Positions 1-26,334 of a DNA stretch of 64,000 bases are shown in pieces (positions within the stretch are counted from its first letter, which is position 1; each line of letters begins with the position of its first letter). The notes below the pieces were generated by a model, which was given only the letters and a program-made list of their open reading frames with translations, ran no database searches and had not been told where the DNA came from. This DNA is from an uncultured bacterium (GTDB lineage: Bacteria; Krumholzibacteriota; Krumholzibacteriia; JACNKJ01). A program made the position numbers and the translations under genes. Where the stretch lies: contig CAVOFT010000001.1 of assembly GCA_963695095.1 (NCBI GenBank), positions 1,952,001-2,016,000 of the forward strand, written 5' to 3'.

Positions 1-1800
1 ACGGGCCTGGGCGATCCCTACCTGAGCCAGCCGCTCGTCGCCGCCGCGGCCCTGCGCGCGCAGACGAGGCACGCCGGGGACCTCCGGCTCCTGCTGGCGA
101 GCGAGTTTCTCCTGCGCACGGTGCCCGGCGACGCGCCCGCGCTGACCCTCGACGCCGACGACGGCCTCGGCTTCCGCCCCCTCGCCCTCGACAGGGCCTT
201 CCCCGTCGACTACGGGAGTCCCGGCCTGAAGAGCCTGACCCTCCGTCTCGAGCGCGCCGACGGCGAATCCGCCTACGCGCGCTTCACCCTCGACGTCCGC
301 GATCAGCAGGCGCCGCCCTACGACGAGCTCTGGCCCCTCACCGCCGAGACGCCCTACGCCGGCGGCCTGGCCAGCGGCCAGGCCTTCGTCTACCGGGCGC
401 CGGGGCATGCGGCGGTCGAGAATCCCGTGATCGTTGTGGAGGGCTTCGACCTCGACAACGTGATGGGCTGGGACGAGCTCTACGATCTGCTCAACCAGCA
501 GAACCTGCTCGAGGATCTGCGCGCGGAGGGCTACGACGCCATCGTGCTCAACTTCACCGAGTCCACCGATTACATCCAGCGCAATGCCTATCTGCTGGTC
601 ACGCTGCTCGCGACCGTGCAGGCCGCGCTCGCCGATCCCGAGCAGGACATCGCCCTCATCGGCGCCAGCATGGGGGGGCTGGTCTCGCGCTACGCCCTCG
701 CGGCGATGGAGCAGGCCGGCCAGCCGCACCGCGTGCGCAGCTTCATCAGCTTCGACTCGCCGCAGATGGGCGCCAACATCCCGCTCGGCATGCAGTACTG
801 GCTGGATTTCTTCCGCATCGAGTCCGAGGAGGCCGGCCACCTGCTCAGCCGCCTCGACACGCCGGCCGCCCGGCAGATGCTCGTCTACCACCACACGAAC
901 CCGCCCGGCGGCACGGGCGAGGCCGACGCCCTGCGCGGCGTGCTCGCCGCCGAGCTCGTGGCGCTGGGCGACTACCCCGCCGACCTGCGCAAGGTGGCCA
1001 TCGCCAACGGCAGCGGCGCCGGCGCCACCCAGGGCTTCGCCGCCGGCGAGCAGATCGTCAGCTACGAGTACGCGAGCTGGCTGGTCGACATCATCGGCAA
1101 CGTCTGGGCGGTGCCGGACGGGGCGAGCCACATCATCTTCGACGGCGAGATCGACCGCATCTGGCCCCTGAACGACGACGCGCTCAGCGTCACCGTCAGC
1201 GGCACCCTGCCCTTCGACAATGCCCCCGGCGGCGCGCGGGCCTCGATGGCCGAGATGGACGCCACCCAGGCCCCCTACGGCGACATCGTCGCGCTCCACG
1301 ACGCGCACTGCTTCATCCCCACCGTGAGCGCGCTCGCGCTGGCCACCGACGATCCCTTCTTCGACATCGCGGGCGCGGGGGACCTCTCCGCGCTGACGCC
1401 CTTCGATGCCGTCTACTTCCCCGCGGCCAACCAGGACCACGTGCTGGTGACGGCCGAGAACAAGGCCTGGTTCATGGTCGAGATCGCGGCGACGGCCAGC
1501 GGCCTGCCGATCGCGCCCGCGCCGGCGGCCCTGGCCCTGGCGGCCTGGCCCAATCCCTTCCGGCCCAGCGTCACCCTGAGCTTCACGCTGGCGGCGCCGG
1601 CGGCCGTCGAGCTCAGCATTCACGATGTGGCGGGCCGGCGCCTGCGCAGGCTCGAAGCGGGCAGCTTCGCCGGCGGCGAGCAGCGCCTCGCCTGGGACGG
1701 CCGCGACGATGCCGGCCGCAGCCTGCCCAGCGGCGTCTACCTCGCCCGCCTGAGGGCGGGGGACGCTGCCGAGAATCTGCGGCTGCTCAGGCTCCGCTAG
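1..1800 (+). CDS. Alpha/beta-hydrolase (lipase/esterase-like) with C-terminal FlgD-Ig/secretion-tail domain; 5' truncated by window edge
   Basis: Frame is open from position 1; GASMGG nucleophile elbow; C-terminal WPNPF...IHDVAGRRLRRL...WDGRDDAGRSLPSGVYLARL. Confidence 0.75.
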   Translation, partial: TGLGDPYLSQPLVAAAALRAQTRHAGDLRLLLASEFLLRTVPGDAPALTLDADDGLGFRPLALDRAFPVDYGSPGLKSLTLRLERADGESAYARFTLDVRDQQAPPYDELWPLTAETPYAGGLASGQAFVYRAPGHAAVENPVIVVEGFDLDNVMGWDELYDLLNQQNLLEDLRAEGYDAIVLNFTESTDYIQRNAYLLVTLLATVQAALADPEQDIALIGASMGGLVSRYALAAMEQAGQPHRVRSFISFDSPQMGANIPLGMQYWLDFFRIESEEAGHLLSRLDTPAARQMLVYHHTNPPGGTGEADALRGVLAAELVALGDYPADLRKVAIANGSGAGATQGFAAGEQIVSYEYASWLVDIIGNVWAVPDGASHIIFDGEIDRIWPLNDDALSVTVSGTLPFDNAPGGARASMAEMDATQAPYGDIVALHDAHCFIPTVSALALATDDPFFDIAGAGDLSALTPFDAVYFPAANQDHVLVTAENKAWFMVEIAATASGLPIAPAPAALALAAWPNPFRPSVTLSFTLAAPAAVELSIHDVAGRRLRRLEAGSFAGGEQRLAWDGRDDAGRSLPSGVYLARLRAGDAAENLRLLRLR

Positions 1801-1878: not shown

Positions 1879-2634
1879 ATGCGCATCCTGCTCAGCAACG
1901 ACGACGGCATCCATGCGCGCGGGCTGGCCGCCCTGCGCGAGGCGCTGGCCCCGCTCTGCGAACTCTGGGTGGTGGCGCCCGCCTCCCAGCAGAGCGCGAG
2001 CAGCCACAGCCTCACCCTGCACACCATCCTGCGCCGGCACCGCATCGAGGAGCGCGTCTTCGCCGTGGACGGCACGCCGGCCGACAGCGTGCTGATGGCG
2101 ATCAACGGCCTCATGGCGGCGACGCCGCCGGATCTCGTGATCTCGGGCGTCAACCACGGGCCGAACATGGGGGAGGACGTGCACTACTCGGGCACGGTGG
2201 CGGCAGCCATCGAGGCGGCGATCCTCGGCGTGCCGGCCCTGGCCGTCTCGGTGGCGGCCTTCCGGGAGCAGATCTTCAGCGGCGCCACGCAGTTCATCGC
2301 CGACCTGGTGACCCGGCACCCCGAGGAGCTGACGCGGCCCGGCACCCTGCTCAACGTCAACGTGCCCAATCTGCCGGCGGCGGCGATCCGCGGCGTGAGC
2401 ATCACGCGGCTGGGCAGCCGCTACTACGGCGATGTCATTCTGCGCAAGGAGGACCCGCGCGGGCGCGAGTACTTCTGGATCGGCGGTGAGGAGCCCACCT
2501 GGCGCGAAGGGGACGACTCGGACTTCCACGCCGTGCACAGCCGGCAGGAGATCTCGGTCACGCCGCTGGCGCTGGATCTCACGGACCACGGCGGCCGGGC
2601 TGCGCTGGCCCACTGGGCCGAGCGCCGGCCATGA
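1879..2634 (+). CDS. surE: 5'/3'-nucleotidase SurE
   Basis: MRILLSNDDG, GTPADS, SGVNHGPNMG, YSGTVAAA motifs. Confidence 0.97.
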   Translation: MRILLSNDDGIHARGLAALREALAPLCELWVVAPASQQSASSHSLTLHTILRRHRIEERVFAVDGTPADSVLMAINGLMAATPPDLVISGVNHGPNMGEDVHYSGTVAAAIEAAILGVPALAVSVAAFREQIFSGATQFIADLVTRHPEELTRPGTLLNVNVPNLPAAAIRGVSITRLGSRYYGDVILRKEDPRGREYFWIGGEEPTWREGDDSDFHAVHSRQEISVTPLALDLTDHGGRAALAHWAERRP

Positions 2635-3302
2635 GCGGGAGCGCAGGAATGGGTCGGGGCGAGCTCTTCGCCGTAGCCCGGGAGCGGATGGTCGCCCGCT
2701 TGCGGGTGCAGGGCCTGGCGGGGGAGGAGGTGCTCGGCGCCATGGCCGAGCTGCCCCGGCATCTCTTCGTGGATGCCGCGCTGGGGAGTCGAGCCTACGG
2801 CCGCGACGCCCTGCCGATCGGTTACGGGCAGACGCTCTCCCATCCCGAGATCGTGGCCCGCATGACCGAAGCCCTGCTGGTCGAGCCCGGGCAGAAGGTC
2901 CTCGAAGTCGGCACCGGCTCCGGGTACCAGGCCGCGCTCCTCGCCAGCCTGGGCCTGCGGGTGTGGACGCTCGAGCGCATCGCGGGCCTTCTGGAGCGCG
3001 CGCGCCCCCTCTGGGCCCGCCTGGGCCTGGAGACGCTGATCGTGGCTCGCCACGGCGACGGCTACCGCGGCTGGCCGGAAGCCGGCCCCTTCGGGCGCAT
3101 CATCGTGACGGCGGCGCCCCGCGCGGTGCCGACGGCCCTGCTGGGGCAGCTGGCCGAAGGGGGCCTGCTCGTCACCCCCATGGGCGGCGAATCCGATCAG
3201 CGCCTGCTGCGCTTCCGCCTGCAGGGTGAGCGGGCCTTCCGGGAGGATCTCGGCGCCTGTTCCTTCGTGCCGATGCTGAGCCGGACCCTGGGGGCCGGCT
3301 AG
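2631..3302 (+). CDS. pcm: Protein-L-isoaspartate O-methyltransferase
   Basis: LPIGYGQTLS, VLEVGTGSGYQAA, GDGYRGWPEAGPF; ATGA overlap with surE. Confidence 0.95.
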   Translation: MSGSAGMGRGELFAVARERMVARLRVQGLAGEEVLGAMAELPRHLFVDAALGSRAYGRDALPIGYGQTLSHPEIVARMTEALLVEPGQKVLEVGTGSGYQAALLASLGLRVWTLERIAGLLERARPLWARLGLETLIVARHGDGYRGWPEAGPFGRIIVTAAPRAVPTALLGQLAEGGLLVTPMGGESDQRLLRFRLQGERAFREDLGACSFVPMLSRTLGAG

Positions 3303-3318
3303 GGGCGGGGAAAGGCCC

Positions 3319-3347
3319 TTTACACCCGTGGGGCCATGACTTATGTT
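3319..3347 (+). promoter_or_regulatory. Putative sigma70 promoter for tRNA-Pro
   Basis: TTTACA-17 nt-TATGTT, 11 nt upstream of the tRNA. Confidence 0.55.
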
Positions 3348-3358
3348 TGCAGCCGTGT

Positions 3359-3433
3359 CGGGGTGTAGCGCAGCCCGGTTAGCGCGCCTCGTTCGGGACG
3401 AGGAGGTCGGAGGTTCAAATCCTCTCACCCCGA
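3359..3433 (+). tRNA. tRNA-Pro(CGG)
   Basis: Cloverleaf: CGGGGTG/CACCCCG acceptor stem, CCTCG-TTCGGGA-CGAGG anticodon arm, TTCAAAT T-loop. Confidence 0.96.
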
Positions 3434-3467
3434 CCCTTTTTTTTCGCTCAGTCCCCCGGAGTACGCC

Positions 3468-4322
3468 GTGGCGGGCGATTTCGAATCCGTCTATGTCCGG
3501 GAGATTTCGAGAATCCCCGTCTTGGGCCCCGAGAAGGAGCGCGCGCTGGCCCGCCGGCTGCGCGACGGGGATGCTGATGCCCGACGGGAGCTGATCGTCA
3601 GCAACCTCCGGCTGGTGCTCAGCATCGCGCGGTCTTACGCGGGGCGCGGCGTCGGCCTGATGGATATCGTCGAAGAGGGCAACCTGGGCCTCATCCGCGC
3701 CGTGGAGAAGTTCAATCCCGATCGCGGCTTTCGCTTCTCCACCTATGCCTCCTACTGGATCAAGCAGGCCATGGCCCGCGCAGTGGCCAACCAGGGACGG
3801 ACCATCCGCATCCCTTTCCATGTCTACCAGCTCGTGAATCGCTACACGCGCTTGATGGTCCGCGAGAGCCAGGCAGCGAGCAGTTCCGATGCGGAGCTCG
3901 CGCGGCGCCTGCACTGCACCGAGCGCAAGGCCCACCTGCTGCGCAATCTCGTGATGGGGATCCTCTCGCTCGACCTGCTGATGAGCCAGGGCGCGATGAA
4001 GGAGCTCTATGCGGCGGAAGAGAACCGTGTGGGCCAGACGCCGGAAGATGTCGTTGCCCTGCAACTCGAGCACGAGCAGGTGCACCGTCTCATGGACAAG
4101 CTGTCGGAGCGCGAGCGCGCCGTCCTGCGCATTCGCTACGGCTTCGAGTCCGCTGGGGAGTTTCAAACGCTGGAGGAAACGGGGCGCGCCTTCGGGGTCA
4201 CGCGCGAGCGCGCCCGCCAGATCGAGATGAAGGCCTTGCGGAAGCTGCGCTTGCTCCTGCTGAGCGAGGAGGCAGGCAACGGCGAGGTTGGTGAACAGAG
4301 CCCCCGTAGCTCAGGCGGATAG
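3468..4322 (+). CDS. RNA polymerase sigma-70 factor, group 2/RpoS-like (no region 1.1)
   Basis: [68 protein letters not shown] before GTG. Confidence 0.9.
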
Positions 4323-4372
4323 AGCAGCGGTTTCCTAAACCGCGTGGGCAGGTTCGAGTCCTGCCGGGGGTA
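4300..4372 (+). tRNA. tRNA-Arg(CCT)
   Basis: GCCCCCG/CGGGGGT acceptor stem, GCGGT-TTCCTAA-ACCGC anticodon arm, TTCGAGT T-loop. Confidence 0.95.
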
Positions 4373-4410
4373 CCTGATCGGGATGGGTAGGGGCATGGGC
4401 GGTGGGCATG

Positions 4411-4533
4411 AAAAAACGAGGGGCTCACCGCTGAGTACGTATGACTACCCACCCTTCAGAGGCTCGTGCGGCAATCGCTTCGCTGAGATGCATGAGGATA
4501 CGGGGTCACGTACTCCCAGTAGAGCCCACTCGC
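4411..4533 (-). ncRNA. Candidate ~120-nt rod-shaped ncRNA of unknown family
   Basis: Long-range pairing (GGGCTC/GAGCCC, GAGTACG/CGTACTC, TGAC/GTCA), ending in T6, directly downstream of a consensus promoter. Confidence 0.6.
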
Positions 4534-4539
4534 GAACGA

Positions 4540-4568
4540 AGGTTAGCAGCGAGGTCAAGGGCTGTCAA
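4540..4568 (-). promoter_or_regulatory. sigma70 promoter for the candidate ncRNA
   Basis: TTGACA-17 nt-TAACCT on the minus strand. Confidence 0.7.
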
Positions 4569-4669
4569 CGCGGTCCGGCAATATTTTGCGCTATGATGCG
4601 CGTATCCGTAATCCCTGCGTAATGAACGCGTTATCCTGGCTGAAATATCGCCATTCCGTCACCAGGCCG

Positions 4670-4702
4670 AAATAAATAGGCGCCCCTCCAGGAAGGGCGC
4701 CT
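4670..4702 (-). terminator. Rho-independent terminator after the small ORF
   Basis: AGGCGCCCTTC-CTG-GAGGGGCGCCT followed by ATTTATTT. Confidence 0.7.
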
Positions 4703-4734
4703 TAGGTATGGAAAGCCATTGGGTCCTCTTGAAC

Positions 4735-4788
4735 TTAGTCTCGCAACCACCAGAAGAGATCCAGCAGTCCGCAGAAGAACACCAACAT
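4735..4788 (-). CDS. 17-aa hydrophobic peptide MLVFFCGLLDLFWWLRD
   Basis: AAGGAAAGGAGGAG RBS just before ATG; TAA stop; flanked by sigma54-type promoter and terminator; below the ORF-track size cutoff. Confidence 0.6.
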   Translation of the reverse strand: MLVFFCGLLDLFWWLRD

Positions 4789-4840
4789 GGGTTCTCCTCC
4801 TTTCCTTCAGGACCTCGGCCGAGATGTCCGCATCGTGCCT

Positions 4841-4856
4841 TGCAAGGCCCGTGCCG
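4841..4856 (-). promoter_or_regulatory. Putative sigma54 -24/-12 promoter for the small peptide gene
   Basis: CGGCACG-GGCC-TTGCA versus consensus TGGCACG-N4-TTGCW. Confidence 0.6.
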
Positions 4857-4875
4857 TTGCCAAGCAATCCTCGGT

Positions 4876-7372
4876 CTAGCTAGCGATCCGCATGAATACA
4901 AAGGAGATATCGTCGCTCTGGGCACCCTCGCCGAAGCGGGTGAGCTCGTCCAGAAGCTGGTCGGAAAGGCCTTCTAGACCTTCATCCGTGCGCGATTGCA
5001 GCCAGCCCGCCAGGCGCTCCTCGCCATAGGACTCCTGCTGGCGGTCCAGCTGATCCTCCAGCCCGTCCGAGCGCAGGAAGAGCAGGTCCCCCGGACGCAG
5101 TTGCAGCACCCCCTGCAGGTAGGACTGCCCCTGCTCCACCCCCAGCAGCTGACCGCCGCGCCGCAGGCGCTCGAGGCGCCCTTCCCGGCGGAGGAGCCAG
5201 GGCGCGGGCATGCCGGCATTGCAGTAGCGCAGAAGCCCGCTGTCGCGCTCCACCTGCCCATAGAAGAAGCCCGCGAAGGTGCCATGCCGGCGCGCCCGAT
5301 CAGCAACCAGCCGGCCGAGCGACTGGTTCATGCCGGCCAGGACCTGGGCGGGGGCGAGACCGTCGGCGGCCTGGGCGTGGAAGGCCACGGCCACGGAGGA
5401 GATCAGCATCGCCGCCGGGACGCCATGCCCCGTCGCATCGCCGAGGGCGAGACCCAGCCGGCGTTCGTCGAACTCGAGGAAGTCGTAGTAGTCCCCGCCC
5501 ACTTCGCTGCTGGTCCGCATGCGGCCCGCCAGCTCGATCCAGGGCAGGCGAGGCGTGCGGCGGGGGAGGAGGTCGAGCTGGATGCTGCGGGCCAGCTCCA
5601 TCTCGCTGCGCAAGCGCTCCTCCCGGGAGGCCAGGGCGACAAGACTCAGGTTGCGCAGGTGCAGTTCGAGCGGGGCAACCAGCCGCTGCAGGCCTTCGAT
5701 GATCTCCGCGTCGTAGAGCGCCCGGCGCCGGGAAGGACCGAGCACCAGCAGCGCCGGGCGATCGCTGTCGCCGCTGAGGCGAAGCAGCAGGGCCCAATCG
5801 TGGGCCTTGCAGTAGGGGAGGGCCTCCGGGCCCAGCAGGCTCCGCGCCCAGTAGGGGTCCCACTGCTCCGCAGCGAGGAAGCAGCGCTTGCCCAGCAGGG
5901 CCTCCTCGAGAGTGCCAGGCAGGCTGTAGCCGGCGCCAGCGTCGGGGACCGTGATGGAGGCCGGGGAACCGCCCTCGCTTACCCAGCGATCCTGGACGCG
6001 CCAGCTGCCATCGTCCTCGCCTTCCAGCCAGAGCAGCCAGGTGGATTCCGCCTCCCAGCCCAGCCGCGGCAGGAGCGCTCGGCTCAGCTCGCGCCGGCAG
6101 GTGAAGTAGCGCGGGGGCGCGAGCCAGCGCAAGCAATCCTGAAAAGGCGCTTCGCTGCCCTCGCGACTGCGGCGCAACAGGCGGCGGCGCAGGGGCACGA
6201 CCATCGGCAGCGCGATGAGCAGAGCGAGGGTGTCGAAGACGAGGTCTTCGGGAGCGCTTGCTGTCCCGGGGCGCAGCGCGTGCAGCCCGAGTCGAACGAG
6301 GAGGAAGAGGCCGATCAACAGGGCGCTCGCGATGAGGAGCCGGCGCAAACGCGCGGCGCGGTGATAGAGGGCCGGCAGGTCCGGTCCCAGGATGCCCAGG
6401 GCGAAGCTGAGCGGCAGGAGCGTGAGCGACAGGGGAATCCAATCCGCTAGCCCCAGGCGCCGTCCCGGCAGGACCTGGTGCAGTAGCTGGAAGACGACGA
6501 GGGGAAGCAGTCCGAAGAGCGCGGCGATGAGCACGAGGCGGATGCGCCGTCGCTCACGGCGATGCTTGCGCCGGAAGGCCTTGAACACGAGGACGCCGAG
6601 GCCGAGCAACAGCAGGAGGCCGCTCTGGATGGCGGCGACCTGCTGCAGTGTCCGCGCCGGGGCGGCCGTGCCCGCGATCGGAAGATCGGCGAGGATCGCC
6701 GAGGCCGACCACGAGGGCGAGCAAGAGGGGGGGCAGGTAGATCAGCAGGCGCAGGACCAGAGGCCGCGCTCGCCGCTCCGGAAAGAGGATGATGAAGTGG
6801 AGCCAGACCGCGGGCAGCAGCAGGGCGAACACGTCGGCCTTCCACTCCAGGAAGGTCGCCGCCGCACCGGGCCCCGGCCGGGGATCGAGCGCGAAGAGCG
6901 AGCCGATGAGCAGGGTGAGCAGGAAGAAGAGCCTGGCCAGGGGGTCGCGGCGACGGCCCTGCACCCAGTACCCGATGAGGAAGACGGCGATGGCCGCAAG
7001 TGTGCGCAGGCTCAGGCCGAAGCGGCGGCCGAGATCGGGCGGGCGCAGGGATAGCGTCTGCTCGAGGCGTTCGCTTCCGCGCTGCACCTCGAGGCGGATG
7101 GGGCCGGCTCGTGCGCCCGCCACCAGGGCGGCGCTGGCCTCGGCGTCCCGGCGGGGACTGTGGCCGTTGATGCGCAGGAGGCGATCGCCGGCTTGAAGCG
7201 ATGCCTGCCCTTCCCCGGCGGGCGCGTTGGGTATCACCCGCAGCTGCCTGAGGCGGAAGGGGAGCTCCGGCCCCTGCCAGCGCTCGCTGAGGCCGGCGGC
7301 GGCCAAGAGGATCAAGGCGACGAGGGCGAGGGCGGGCAGGGCGCGCCGAAGCCCCAGAAAGAACCTGGCCAT
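4876..7372 (-). CDS. Membrane-bound PP2C/SpoIIE phosphatase with N-terminal PDZ-like domain; split by a +1 frameshift near 6700
   Basis: LQAGDRLLRING (PDZ), multiple TM helices, EVGGDYYDF, GDATGHGVPAAM, SDGLED, DDISFV; ORFs 6554-7372 and 4876-6609 join. Confidence 0.85.
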
Positions 7373-25801: not shown

Positions 25802-25978
25802 AAAATTCCCCACGCATTGCCGTGCGAGAATCTACCGCATGGGCCAAAGTTCCCATGGGGGAAGACCACACGACCGGTTCAGGTCGCCCGCGGGCACCAT
25901 CGGTCGGTCGGATTCGGCCTTCCAAAGTGAAGGTGTTGGCTCAGACGCTGTCTTCCCGCTCGAACACGGTAGGGAATC
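25802..25978 (-). ncRNA. ssrS: 6S RNA-like ncRNA plus downstream hairpin
   Basis: Canonical position after zapA; closing stem CTACCG/CGGTAG, GGGAAGAC/GTCTTCCC helix; own promoter TTGCCC-18-TATACT (extended -10) at 25986-26015. Confidence 0.7.
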
Positions 25979-26022: not shown

Positions 26023-26334
26023 TCACTCATGGCCGCCAGCCGCCTCGCCCCGCGGCTCGTCGTCGAAGAGGCGCAGCAAGCGCGCCGCCTTTTCCTCCAC
26101 GGCGGGCCCATTCGACTCACGCTGCCCACGTTCGCGATGGAGTTCGTCCGCGATAGTGAAGGCCGCGAGGATGGCGATGCGCAAGGGCGAAACCTGCCGC
26201 CCGCTGGCCGCGATCTCCTTCATCGTCCGATCGACGTAGTCGGCGAGCTGCCGGATATGCTCGGCATCGGCATCCCCGCGCACGCGGTAGTCGTTGCCGA
26301 AGATGCTCACCTGGACGCGCGCTTCACTGGACAT
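26023..26334 (-). CDS. zapA: Cell division protein ZapA
   Basis: VSIFGNDY, LADYVDRTMKEI, IAILAAFTIADEL; follows pheT. Confidence 0.9.
   Translation of the reverse strand: MSSEARVQVSIFGNDYRVRGDADAEHIRQLADYVDRTMKEIAASGRQVSPLRIAILAAFTIADELHRERGQRESNGPAVEEKAARLLRLFDDEPRGEAAGGHE

Follow-up and report, generated by a model that had tools for sequence, protein, structure and literature searches.

Introduction

Bacterial small structured RNAs are put to use in different ways. The RNA of the signal recognition particle (SRP) is read by a protein at a folded site. 6S RNAs measure about 150-200 nucleotides (nt) and contain a large central bubble, and some bacteria possess second 6S-like RNAs. Sigma-dependent small RNAs (sRNAs) are established as repressor arms for sigma-E and sigma-S in enterobacteria. 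Here, we analyse an element that invites comparison with these systems, located between positions 4411 and 4568 of a 64,000-nt stretch of DNA from an uncultured bacterium of the Krumholzibacteriia (GenBank assembly GCA_963695095.1, contig CAVOFT010000001.1, positions 1,952,001 to 2,016,000). This stretch is called the window below, and its positions are counted from its first letter. The source genome (G000) comprises 3.64 Mb in 2 contigs and is 93.5% complete. Judged by its sequence and conservation, the element is predicted to be a true non-coding RNA gene, with a product about 120 nt long, that founds an uncatalogued family. The genomes concerned, labelled Krumholzibacteriota or Latescibacterota, are from uncultured organisms, and among the results of a full-text literature search, no paper paired these phyla with non-coding RNA terms, except one CsrA survey mentioning Krumholzibacteria.

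A predicted RNA gene with its own promoter

The features of the element are the following.

4563..4568, minus strand: -35 box TTGACA, read from the sequence (TTGACA in 31 of 32 distinct homologues, TTGACG in one)
4540..4548, minus strand: extended -10 box, TGC followed by TAACCT (TAACCT at 4545-4540), 17 nt past the -35 box, read from the sequence
4411..4533, minus strand: rod RNA of about 123 nt, its 5' end inferred from the promoter, its 3' end being the U6 at 4416-4411
4450..4500, minus strand: near-invariant apical domain with most of 34 invariant columns, composed of the helices UAUCC/GGGUG and UCA/UGA, an internal loop in which A faces CUC, and a hairpin
4468..4483, minus strand: bulged GC hairpin GCG-AA-GC-loop-GC-CGC, the most conserved element, with all cells paired in 49 distinct sequences

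Homologues were collected by BLASTN, which returned the element from 14 of the 61 related genomes searched, with 11/11 in the window's own family (f1), and by a scan for a conserved 28-nt core in one genome per prokaryote species, which gave 28 loci. Where a taxon was given for these loci, it was Candidatus Krumholzibacteriia/Krumholzibacteriota or Latescibacterota, and once Chitinivibrionia. The 41 sequences collected were reduced to 32 distinct ones after removal of duplicates.

A promoter was present at the same place in all 32 distinct homologues, made up of TTGAC(A/G), a spacer of 17-18 nt and a TAnnnT or TATACT-type box. The TGC-TAnnnT form was found in the 11 f1 sequences without exception, and the other families mostly have TATACT or TATAAT with an 18-nt spacer. 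Likewise, a U-run ends the element in 32/32. The window promoter was absent from the output of a simple consensus promoter scan because TAACCT matches TATAAT at only three of six positions; we judge this promoter to be real because it is conserved among the homologues, and not from the scan. Reading the promoters row by row, we found a C directly before the -10 box in 23 of the 32, while a tally at a fixed position gave 15/32, this lower value being due to the 18-nt spacer of most rows outside f1. In E. coli, RpoS-type promoters are marked by such a C, which is taken here only as a lead. Based on these sequence features, the RNA is predicted to be transcribed from a strong promoter of its own, of the sigma-70 family type, and to be terminated by its basal helix and U-tract.

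The minimum-energy fold of 4535-4411 on the minus strand is a single rod (-53.7 kcal/mol, z -3.40), and none of 200 dinucleotide shuffles folded as well. The plus strand folds about equally well (z -3.37 vs -3.40), so the choice of strand rests on the promoter, the U-tail and the G-U pairs of the homologues rather than on fold energy; at one pair, U-G occurs in 34 of 49 sequences, and the opposite strand would give an A-C mismatch there. A preliminary description of the window, made from its letters, had proposed an independently promoted structured RNA converging on tRNA-Arg and a sigma factor gene, with TTGACA-17-TAACCT directly before a sequence that pairs end to end, T6 at its end and no credible open reading frame. 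Promoter conservation and the arrangement of the locus bear this out: both boxes were confirmed on the minus strand, with a TGn extended -10, the T6 corresponds to the U6 at 4416-4411, and all the pairings listed are present in the minimum-energy rod. As for coding capacity, no open reading frame is conserved: most homologues lack the AUG that the window RNA contains, and insertions or deletions of 1-11 nt distinguish the copies.

Distribution in Krumholzibacteriia

In the MAFFT alignments, the 3' strand of the basal helix came out in the wrong place; we therefore used a covariance model, R1, in which the MAFFT alignment was combined with a hand-drawn structure. R1 matches 4418-4533 at 88.2 bits, this copy being one of those from which R1 was built. 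With strict filters, R1 matched 52 of 151 genomes of the phylum, with a single match in each. Leaving G000 aside, these matches fall in families f1 (9/9), f4 (19/33), f5 (15/17) and f8 (8/9), and the strict search gave 0/61 in f2, 0/5 in f3, 0/9 in f6, 0/6 in f7 and 0/1 in f9. Five near-complete genomes of f2, f3 and f6 gave no R1 match even at E<=1.

The zeros do not all have the same meaning. Five f4 genomes missed by the strict filters were inspected, and all five carry the RNA at the expected place (17.5-30.4 bits), indicating that the f4 misses stem largely from limited sensitivity. In f7, the equivalent position of both loci inspected is occupied by a rod of about 115-125 nt, with a TTGACA promoter before it and a terminator behind it. 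Their sequences are strongly diverged, R1 giving 11.9 bits at one locus and no correct match at the other, and locus L100 retains the bulged GC hairpin. A pattern scan of metagenomes, for which 80 of 119 stretches were listed, gave 10 stretches that pass R1 at E<=0.001, one of them doubtful (23.5 bits); the scan thus adds about 9 members, the remaining stretches being chance matches in coding DNA. From these sequence searches, at least five families of the Krumholzibacteriia possess the predicted RNA, each genome with a single copy. The window element bears the marks of the Krumholzibacteriia rod RNA, namely the promoter, a covarying rod, the fixed GCG-AA-GC...GCYGC hairpin, the U-tail and a position downstream of a gene for a WW micropeptide.

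Separately, three genomes of genus g3 (loci L016, L017 and L018, at about 1472-1605, minus strand) have a second, weak R1 match of 18-20 bits, which agrees with the RNA over about 20 nt in the 3' apical strand (GCCGCAC.AGCCUCUGAAGG). It may be a diverged paralogue or a chance match.

Covarying basal helices and a fixed apical domain

The R1 alignment contains 61 matches, corresponding to 49 distinct sequences. Standard pairs occupy 88.3% of cells in these 49 sequences, compared with 35.9-45.2% when partners are slid by 1-3 columns, and changes on both sides were seen in 22 of 37 pairs; none of 500 shuffles reached the observed values. Independent single-sequence folds of the homologues also support the rod, the 5' end being paired with the 3' end in the minimum-energy folds of all 32 distinct homologues. 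The covariation check suggested in the preliminary description thus returned compensatory changes, and all of them lie in the basal part of the rod, that is in five helices (helices 1-5). In the apical helices 6-7, none of eight pairs changed on both sides and five never vary. The apical fixation covers both strands of some helices. Because the basal helices covary while about 50 nt at the apex stay fixed, the rod seems to need only helicity, and the apical domain its exact sequence.

Variation inside the apical domain is limited. The hairpin loop has 4 nt (GGUU, GAUU, GCUU or ACUU), or 6 nt (GAUCUU) in f4, and one hairpin pair shifts from G-C to G-U in 14 of the 49 distinct sequences. In one metagenome variant, read by eye, the UCA/UGA helix is altered on both sides, from C-G to A-U. 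An alternative apical pairing of GCU with the AGC just 5' of the hairpin was rejected, as it fails in f4. The pairing GCY/GGC fits better and is a candidate; its third pair is U-G in 23, C-G in 13 and U-A in one of the 49 sequences, and is unpaired in 12.

Comparison with catalogued RNA families

At gathering scores, the 4227 models of Rfam 15 yielded seven tRNAs only in the window. When the search was relaxed to E<=10 on 4250-4900, no match to the element appeared, and six diverse homologues searched at E<=5 gave no match to the RNA either. The preliminary description had been unable to assign the element to a known family, had set aside SRP RNA and a large 6S-type bubble, and had named dispersed copies as the mark of a repeat. 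Our searches agree with it on each of these points. SRP RNA was rejected, RF00169 having no match here at E<=10; the genuine SRP RNA of the genome lies elsewhere (C1:2316337-2316436, 70.9 bits) and has the usual apical motif. 6S RNA was rejected in the same way, as neither RF00013 nor RF01685 matches the element at E<=10 and the fold is without a large bubble, its largest internal loops being about 4 by 4 nt. A Y RNA was rejected for want of a TROVE/Ro gene (PF05731, 0 matches in G000; the control was positive in 2/14 genomes). A repetitive extragenic palindromic (REP) or miniature inverted-repeat transposable element (MITE)-like repeat was rejected as well: the element is present in a single copy in G000 and matched once in each of the 52 matching genomes. 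Profiles of the RNA chaperones Hfq (PF17209) and ProQ (PF04352) had 0 matches each in G000.

A 6S RNA candidate that the preliminary description had placed after zapA was confirmed in the window as a full-length RF00013 match.

25803-25978, minus strand: 6S RNA candidate, full-length RF00013 match (35.8 bits, E 3e-5; gathering score 46.4)
26077-26316, minus strand: zapA, with the 6S candidate directly downstream

A whole-genome search with RF00013 and RF01685 at default filters gave no match and overlooked this candidate. Being below the gathering score, it would be missed by standard annotation.

The neighbourhood of the RNA gene

In the window, surE, pcm, tRNA-Pro(CGG), the sigma gene and tRNA-Arg(CCT) follow one another, and converging on them are the RNA, a gene for a 17-amino-acid (aa) peptide and a PP2C phosphatase gene.

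3359-3433, plus strand: tRNA-Pro(CGG), preceding the sigma gene
3468..4322, plus strand: group-2 (RpoS/RpoD-like) sigma gene, 284 aa, with Pfam regions 1.2, 2 and 4
4300..4372, plus strand: tRNA-Arg(CCT), convergent to the RNA, with 38 nt between the two 3' ends
4678..4702, minus strand: intrinsic terminator of the micropeptide gene, 11-bp stem and U-rich tail
4735..4788, minus strand: micropeptide gene, 17 aa, ending DLFWWLRD, with a strong Shine-Dalgarno sequence
4841..4856, minus strand: putative sigma-54-type promoter of the micropeptide gene (GG-N10-GC: GGCAC-N5-TTGCA), read by eye
4876..6609, minus strand: PP2C (SpoIIE-type) phosphatase gene (Pfam SpoIIE, E 5.5e-43)

The best NCBIfam matches of the sigma factor are RpoS models, at scores below their cut-offs. 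The sigma gene runs into the tRNA-Arg gene and has its stop codon there (overlap 4300-4322); of 9 f1 loci scanned, 7 retain the order tRNA-sigma-tRNA. The sigma gene is framed by tRNA-Pro(CGG) and tRNA-Arg(CCT) behind a single promoter-like site (3319-3347, plus strand). The order surE, pcm, sigma (1879-4322, plus strand) resembles surE-pcm-nlpD-rpoS, the neighbourhood of rpoS in E. coli, and by this analogy the order would fit an RpoS-like role of the 284-aa sigma factor. No terminator-like site was found on the plus strand between tRNA-Arg and the RNA gene, so read-through from tRNA-Arg would make RNA antisense to the element.

The RNA faces tRNA-Arg(CCT) and the sigma gene in three families. 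The convergent tRNA was found near the RNA in 8/9 f1 loci scanned, in 9 f4 loci and in 2/2 f7 loci; behind it, in f4 and f7, come apt and then the sigma gene. The phosphoribosyltransferase of f4 and f7 was considered as a PyrR-like RNA binder and rejected, as it is an ordinary adenine phosphoribosyltransferase. The downstream genes vary in f5 and f8, and the RNA is retained. In f4 and f7 (L078-L090, L100, L101), an extra hairpin with an A-run and a U-run stands between the rod and tRNA-Arg and resembles a bidirectional terminator; termination seems to fall to the basal helix of the rod and its U-run in f1, f5 and f8.

Full-length sigma orthologs were found only in f1, f4, f5, f7, f8 and f9 (E 1e-64 to 1e-180, mostly in frames of about 270-350 aa). 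The best matches in f2, f3 and f6 were no more than RpoD-like and came for the most part from frames of 546-781 aa (E 1e-39 to 1e-54). The five RNA-bearing families all hold a sigma ortholog, and f2, f3 and f6 gave neither sigma nor RNA, the latter having been found in none of their 75 genomes. On the other side, a PP2C gene, whose homologues often have a GAF domain, is upstream on the strand of the RNA in 14/14 f5/f8 loci and in 9 of 11 further f1, f4 and f7 loci; at the other two, the PP2C gene is convergent, after an inversion. In L080 and L085 (genera g10 and g52), the segment with the peptide gene and the RNA is inverted as one unit between unchanged flanks.

The WW micropeptide gene

Of 151 genomes, 99 have the motif D-L-(L/F)-W-W-L-(R/K), almost all of them in a single copy, and a control with the reversed pattern gave 2 genomes. 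The peptides have 15-26 aa and share the C-terminal consensus (L/I/V)D(L/I)(L/F)WWL(R/K), for which no family name was found. Among 41 loci tried, the RNA core was found in 38, and 30 of these 38 have a peptide gene on the strand of the RNA, starting from which the RNA follows at a distance of 177-374 nt; among the 30 peptide calls, 26 are consistent and the other four differ, one of them being an over-long frame of 34 aa. The same GG...TTGC spacing precedes the peptide gene in f5/f8 and in f2. In f2, where 47 of 61 genomes have the motif, ten loci were read by eye: the peptide gene follows the PP2C gene and is itself followed by a terminator and unrelated convergent genes. No RNA was found behind the peptide gene in f2, neither by eye at these ten loci nor with the model in three whole genomes. 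As f2 keeps the peptide without the RNA, the peptide does not need the RNA. Probably, the micropeptide is a small protein of the membrane and works together with the phosphatase.

In f5/f8 (L048-L054), a strong conserved hairpin (CGGUGUUCCCG ... CGGGAACACCG) immediately follows the stop codon of the peptide gene, and in f8 no U-run comes after it. This hairpin is possibly a site for RNA stability, processing or protein binding.

Discussion

The pattern of constraint described above is like that of RNAs which a protein reads at a folded site, and this likeness together with the linkage to the sigma factor leads us to favour a protein-bound riboregulator. We give about even chances to the proposal that the RNA is a riboregulator of the sigma/PP2C stress module and that its apical domain is read by a protein. 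The RNA would act in trans within this module. A protein would recognise the invariant, partly double-stranded apical domain, making a ribonucleoprotein or turning the RNA into a sequestering one, and the variable rod would be only a stable handle and a terminator. As predicted from the alignment, the fixed apical helices would fit sequence-specific recognition of a folded element, and the sigma holoenzyme, the phosphatase or another protein are possible partners. The preliminary description had suggested a polymerase or sigma decoy linked to the adjacent sigma factor; the link to the sigma factor has indirect support in their adjacency in three families and in their co-occurrence. A bolder version, which we consider unlikely, makes the RNA a dedicated subunit or decoy for the RpoS-like sigma factor or its PP2C switch: a protein of the module would read the invariant AA-bulged hairpin, the RNA would determine the amount of free alternative holoenzyme, and the WW micropeptide, with its sigma-54-type promoter, would feed the same switch.

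Several points weigh against the protein-bound riboregulator. The model alignment was fitted to R1 and favours its own structure. In the AT-rich family f7, the otherwise invariant domain is much altered, to the point of 11.9 bits, showing that the constraint is not absolute. The co-occurrence of RNA and sigma factor may reflect a single evolutionary split, as related genomes are not independent, and the one f9 genome has the sigma gene and no RNA match, on a contig that ends 575 nt after the sigma gene. The absence of Hfq and ProQ genes removes two usual partners of sRNAs and names none. The pairing results speak for the riboregulator as far as long duplexes go, the RNA having shown no excess of complementarity to the presumed start region of the sigma gene (z -0.84 to +0.82 over 8 f1 loci, the wrong frame having been taken in at least 3 of the 8, which makes the effective number smaller), but a short seed of 6-8 nt, e.g. 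the invariant CCUCUG, is beyond the reach of whole-duplex energies. Finally, four public RNA libraries offered contigs only, in which no start, end or strand is visible. Two short contigs, which come from two studies, match 4410-4534 with 2-3 differences. Both reach 36-37 nt into promoter sequence and could stem from DNA carried over or from read-through; they were not counted for transcription or habitat. Two long contigs from a third study span several genes and keep the tRNA, RNA and peptide region, with 4534-4736 replaced by 209 unrelated letters; they show two islands of conservation, not transcription.

Among the other explanations, the one that deserves most attention, although we think it doubtful, is a base-pairing sRNA serving as the repressor arm of the regulon of the RpoS-like sigma factor and made by or together with that factor. 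Its invariant C/U-rich stretch (CCUCUG, CUGCUCUC) would pair with the purine-rich ribosome-binding sites of several mRNAs and block their translation. The RNA adjoins and co-occurs with the sigma gene, the C found before the -10 box in 23/32 promoters would be of the RpoS type, CCUCUG lies partly within an internal loop, and local ribosome-binding sites are GGAGG or GGGGG-like, for instance before the peptide gene. However, the conservation of about 50 nt, including both strands of helices that do not covary, goes far beyond the needs of a seed, pairing within the rod takes up most of the C/U-rich letters, genes for Hfq and ProQ are absent from G000, and no target was found among the two neighbouring mRNAs. 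A very different use of the sigma linkage would be a 6S-type decoy, in which the RNA mimics an open promoter and occupies the polymerase carrying the neighbouring alternative sigma factor until it is freed by synthesis of a product RNA. The rod shape, the strong promoter, the linkage to and co-occurrence with the sigma gene and the existence of second 6S-like RNAs in other bacteria speak for it; the internal loops of at most about 4 by 4 nt, where a large central bubble would be required, a conserved part that is an apical hairpin and not a bubble, the lack of any RF00013 or RF01685 match at E<=10, the canonical full-length candidate already present after zapA and a length of about 120 nt make it very unlikely.

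The proximity of a hydrophobic peptide gene, 177-374 nt upstream on the same strand and kept together with the RNA through an inversion, raises the question of a type I antitoxin or another antisense partner of the micropeptide mRNA, and the preliminary description had also named the peptide gene as a possible partner. This idea did not hold. Over 30 loci, the duplex energy of the RNA with the peptide mRNA had a mean z of 0.09 relative to dinucleotide shuffles; the predicted duplexes extended over the entire molecules, and such a crude test excludes long complementarity only. Since neither neighbouring mRNA shows excess complementarity, long antisense action on the peptide or sigma mRNA is unlikely. 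Moreover, both genes are single-copy and class-wide with fixed neighbours, whereas type I systems are patchy and multi-copy, the peptide is present in 47/61 f2 genomes where no RNA was found, and its gene has a sigma-54-type promoter and a terminator of its own, so that we regard an antitoxin as highly improbable. It is scarcely credible, finally, that there is no new RNA gene at all and that the element is a repeat, a diverged SRP, 6S or Y RNA, or just a long terminator or palindrome separating convergent genes. The position between convergent transcription units, the equally good folding of both strands and the failure of the promoter scan to list the promoter would be expected in that case, but the element is single-copy, its promoter is conserved in 32/32, its apical sequence is fixed while the stems covary, its G-U pairs fit the minus strand only and it stays in f5 and f8 in spite of differing downstream genes; the SRP RNA and a 6S candidate are found elsewhere, and there is no Ro/TROVE gene.

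Should the favoured protein-bound riboregulator have the sigma holoenzyme as its partner, it would exemplify a new mode of sigma-factor control by RNA, and the subunit or decoy version would represent a second kind of sigma-directed regulatory RNA, one without the promoter-mimicking bubble of the 6S type. The RNA offers a testable entry to the control of stress sigma factors outside the model phyla, and RNA databases gain a new family, for which the model and alignments cover 49 distinct sequences. This is a new family within a known kind, the bacterial small structured RNAs, at a locus that is unusually informative.

Among described RNAs, the rod is most readily compared with the small (4.5S) SRP RNA of bacteria, likewise a single-copy rod of about 100-120 nt in which the basal part covaries freely and a fixed apical domain is read by protein; the conserved letters are other than those of SRP RNA. 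With 6S RNA (SsrS, RF00013; 6S-Flavo, RF01685), it shares the strongly promoted rod and possibly a tie to a sigma factor, but it has about 120 nt and no central bubble. Bacterial Y RNAs (Ro/Rsr) are of similar size (about 100-120 nt), have their ends paired in a long stem and, as is proposed for the rod RNA, would bind protein at a conserved helix; unlike them, the rod RNA has no tRNA-like module and no Rfam match. The adjoining gene for a tiny hydrophobic peptide recalls type I antitoxin RNAs, from which the rod RNA is set apart by the missing complementarity signal, by a single-copy, class-wide syntenic locus and by the occurrence of the peptide without the RNA in f2. The sigma-dependent sRNAs of the sigma-E and sigma-S regulons of enterobacteria, finally, have in common with it an own promoter, an intrinsic terminator and a tie to an alternative sigma factor and a stress phosphatase, but they act through short single-stranded seeds, usually with Hfq, whereas in the rod RNA about 50 nt are fixed, paired strands included.

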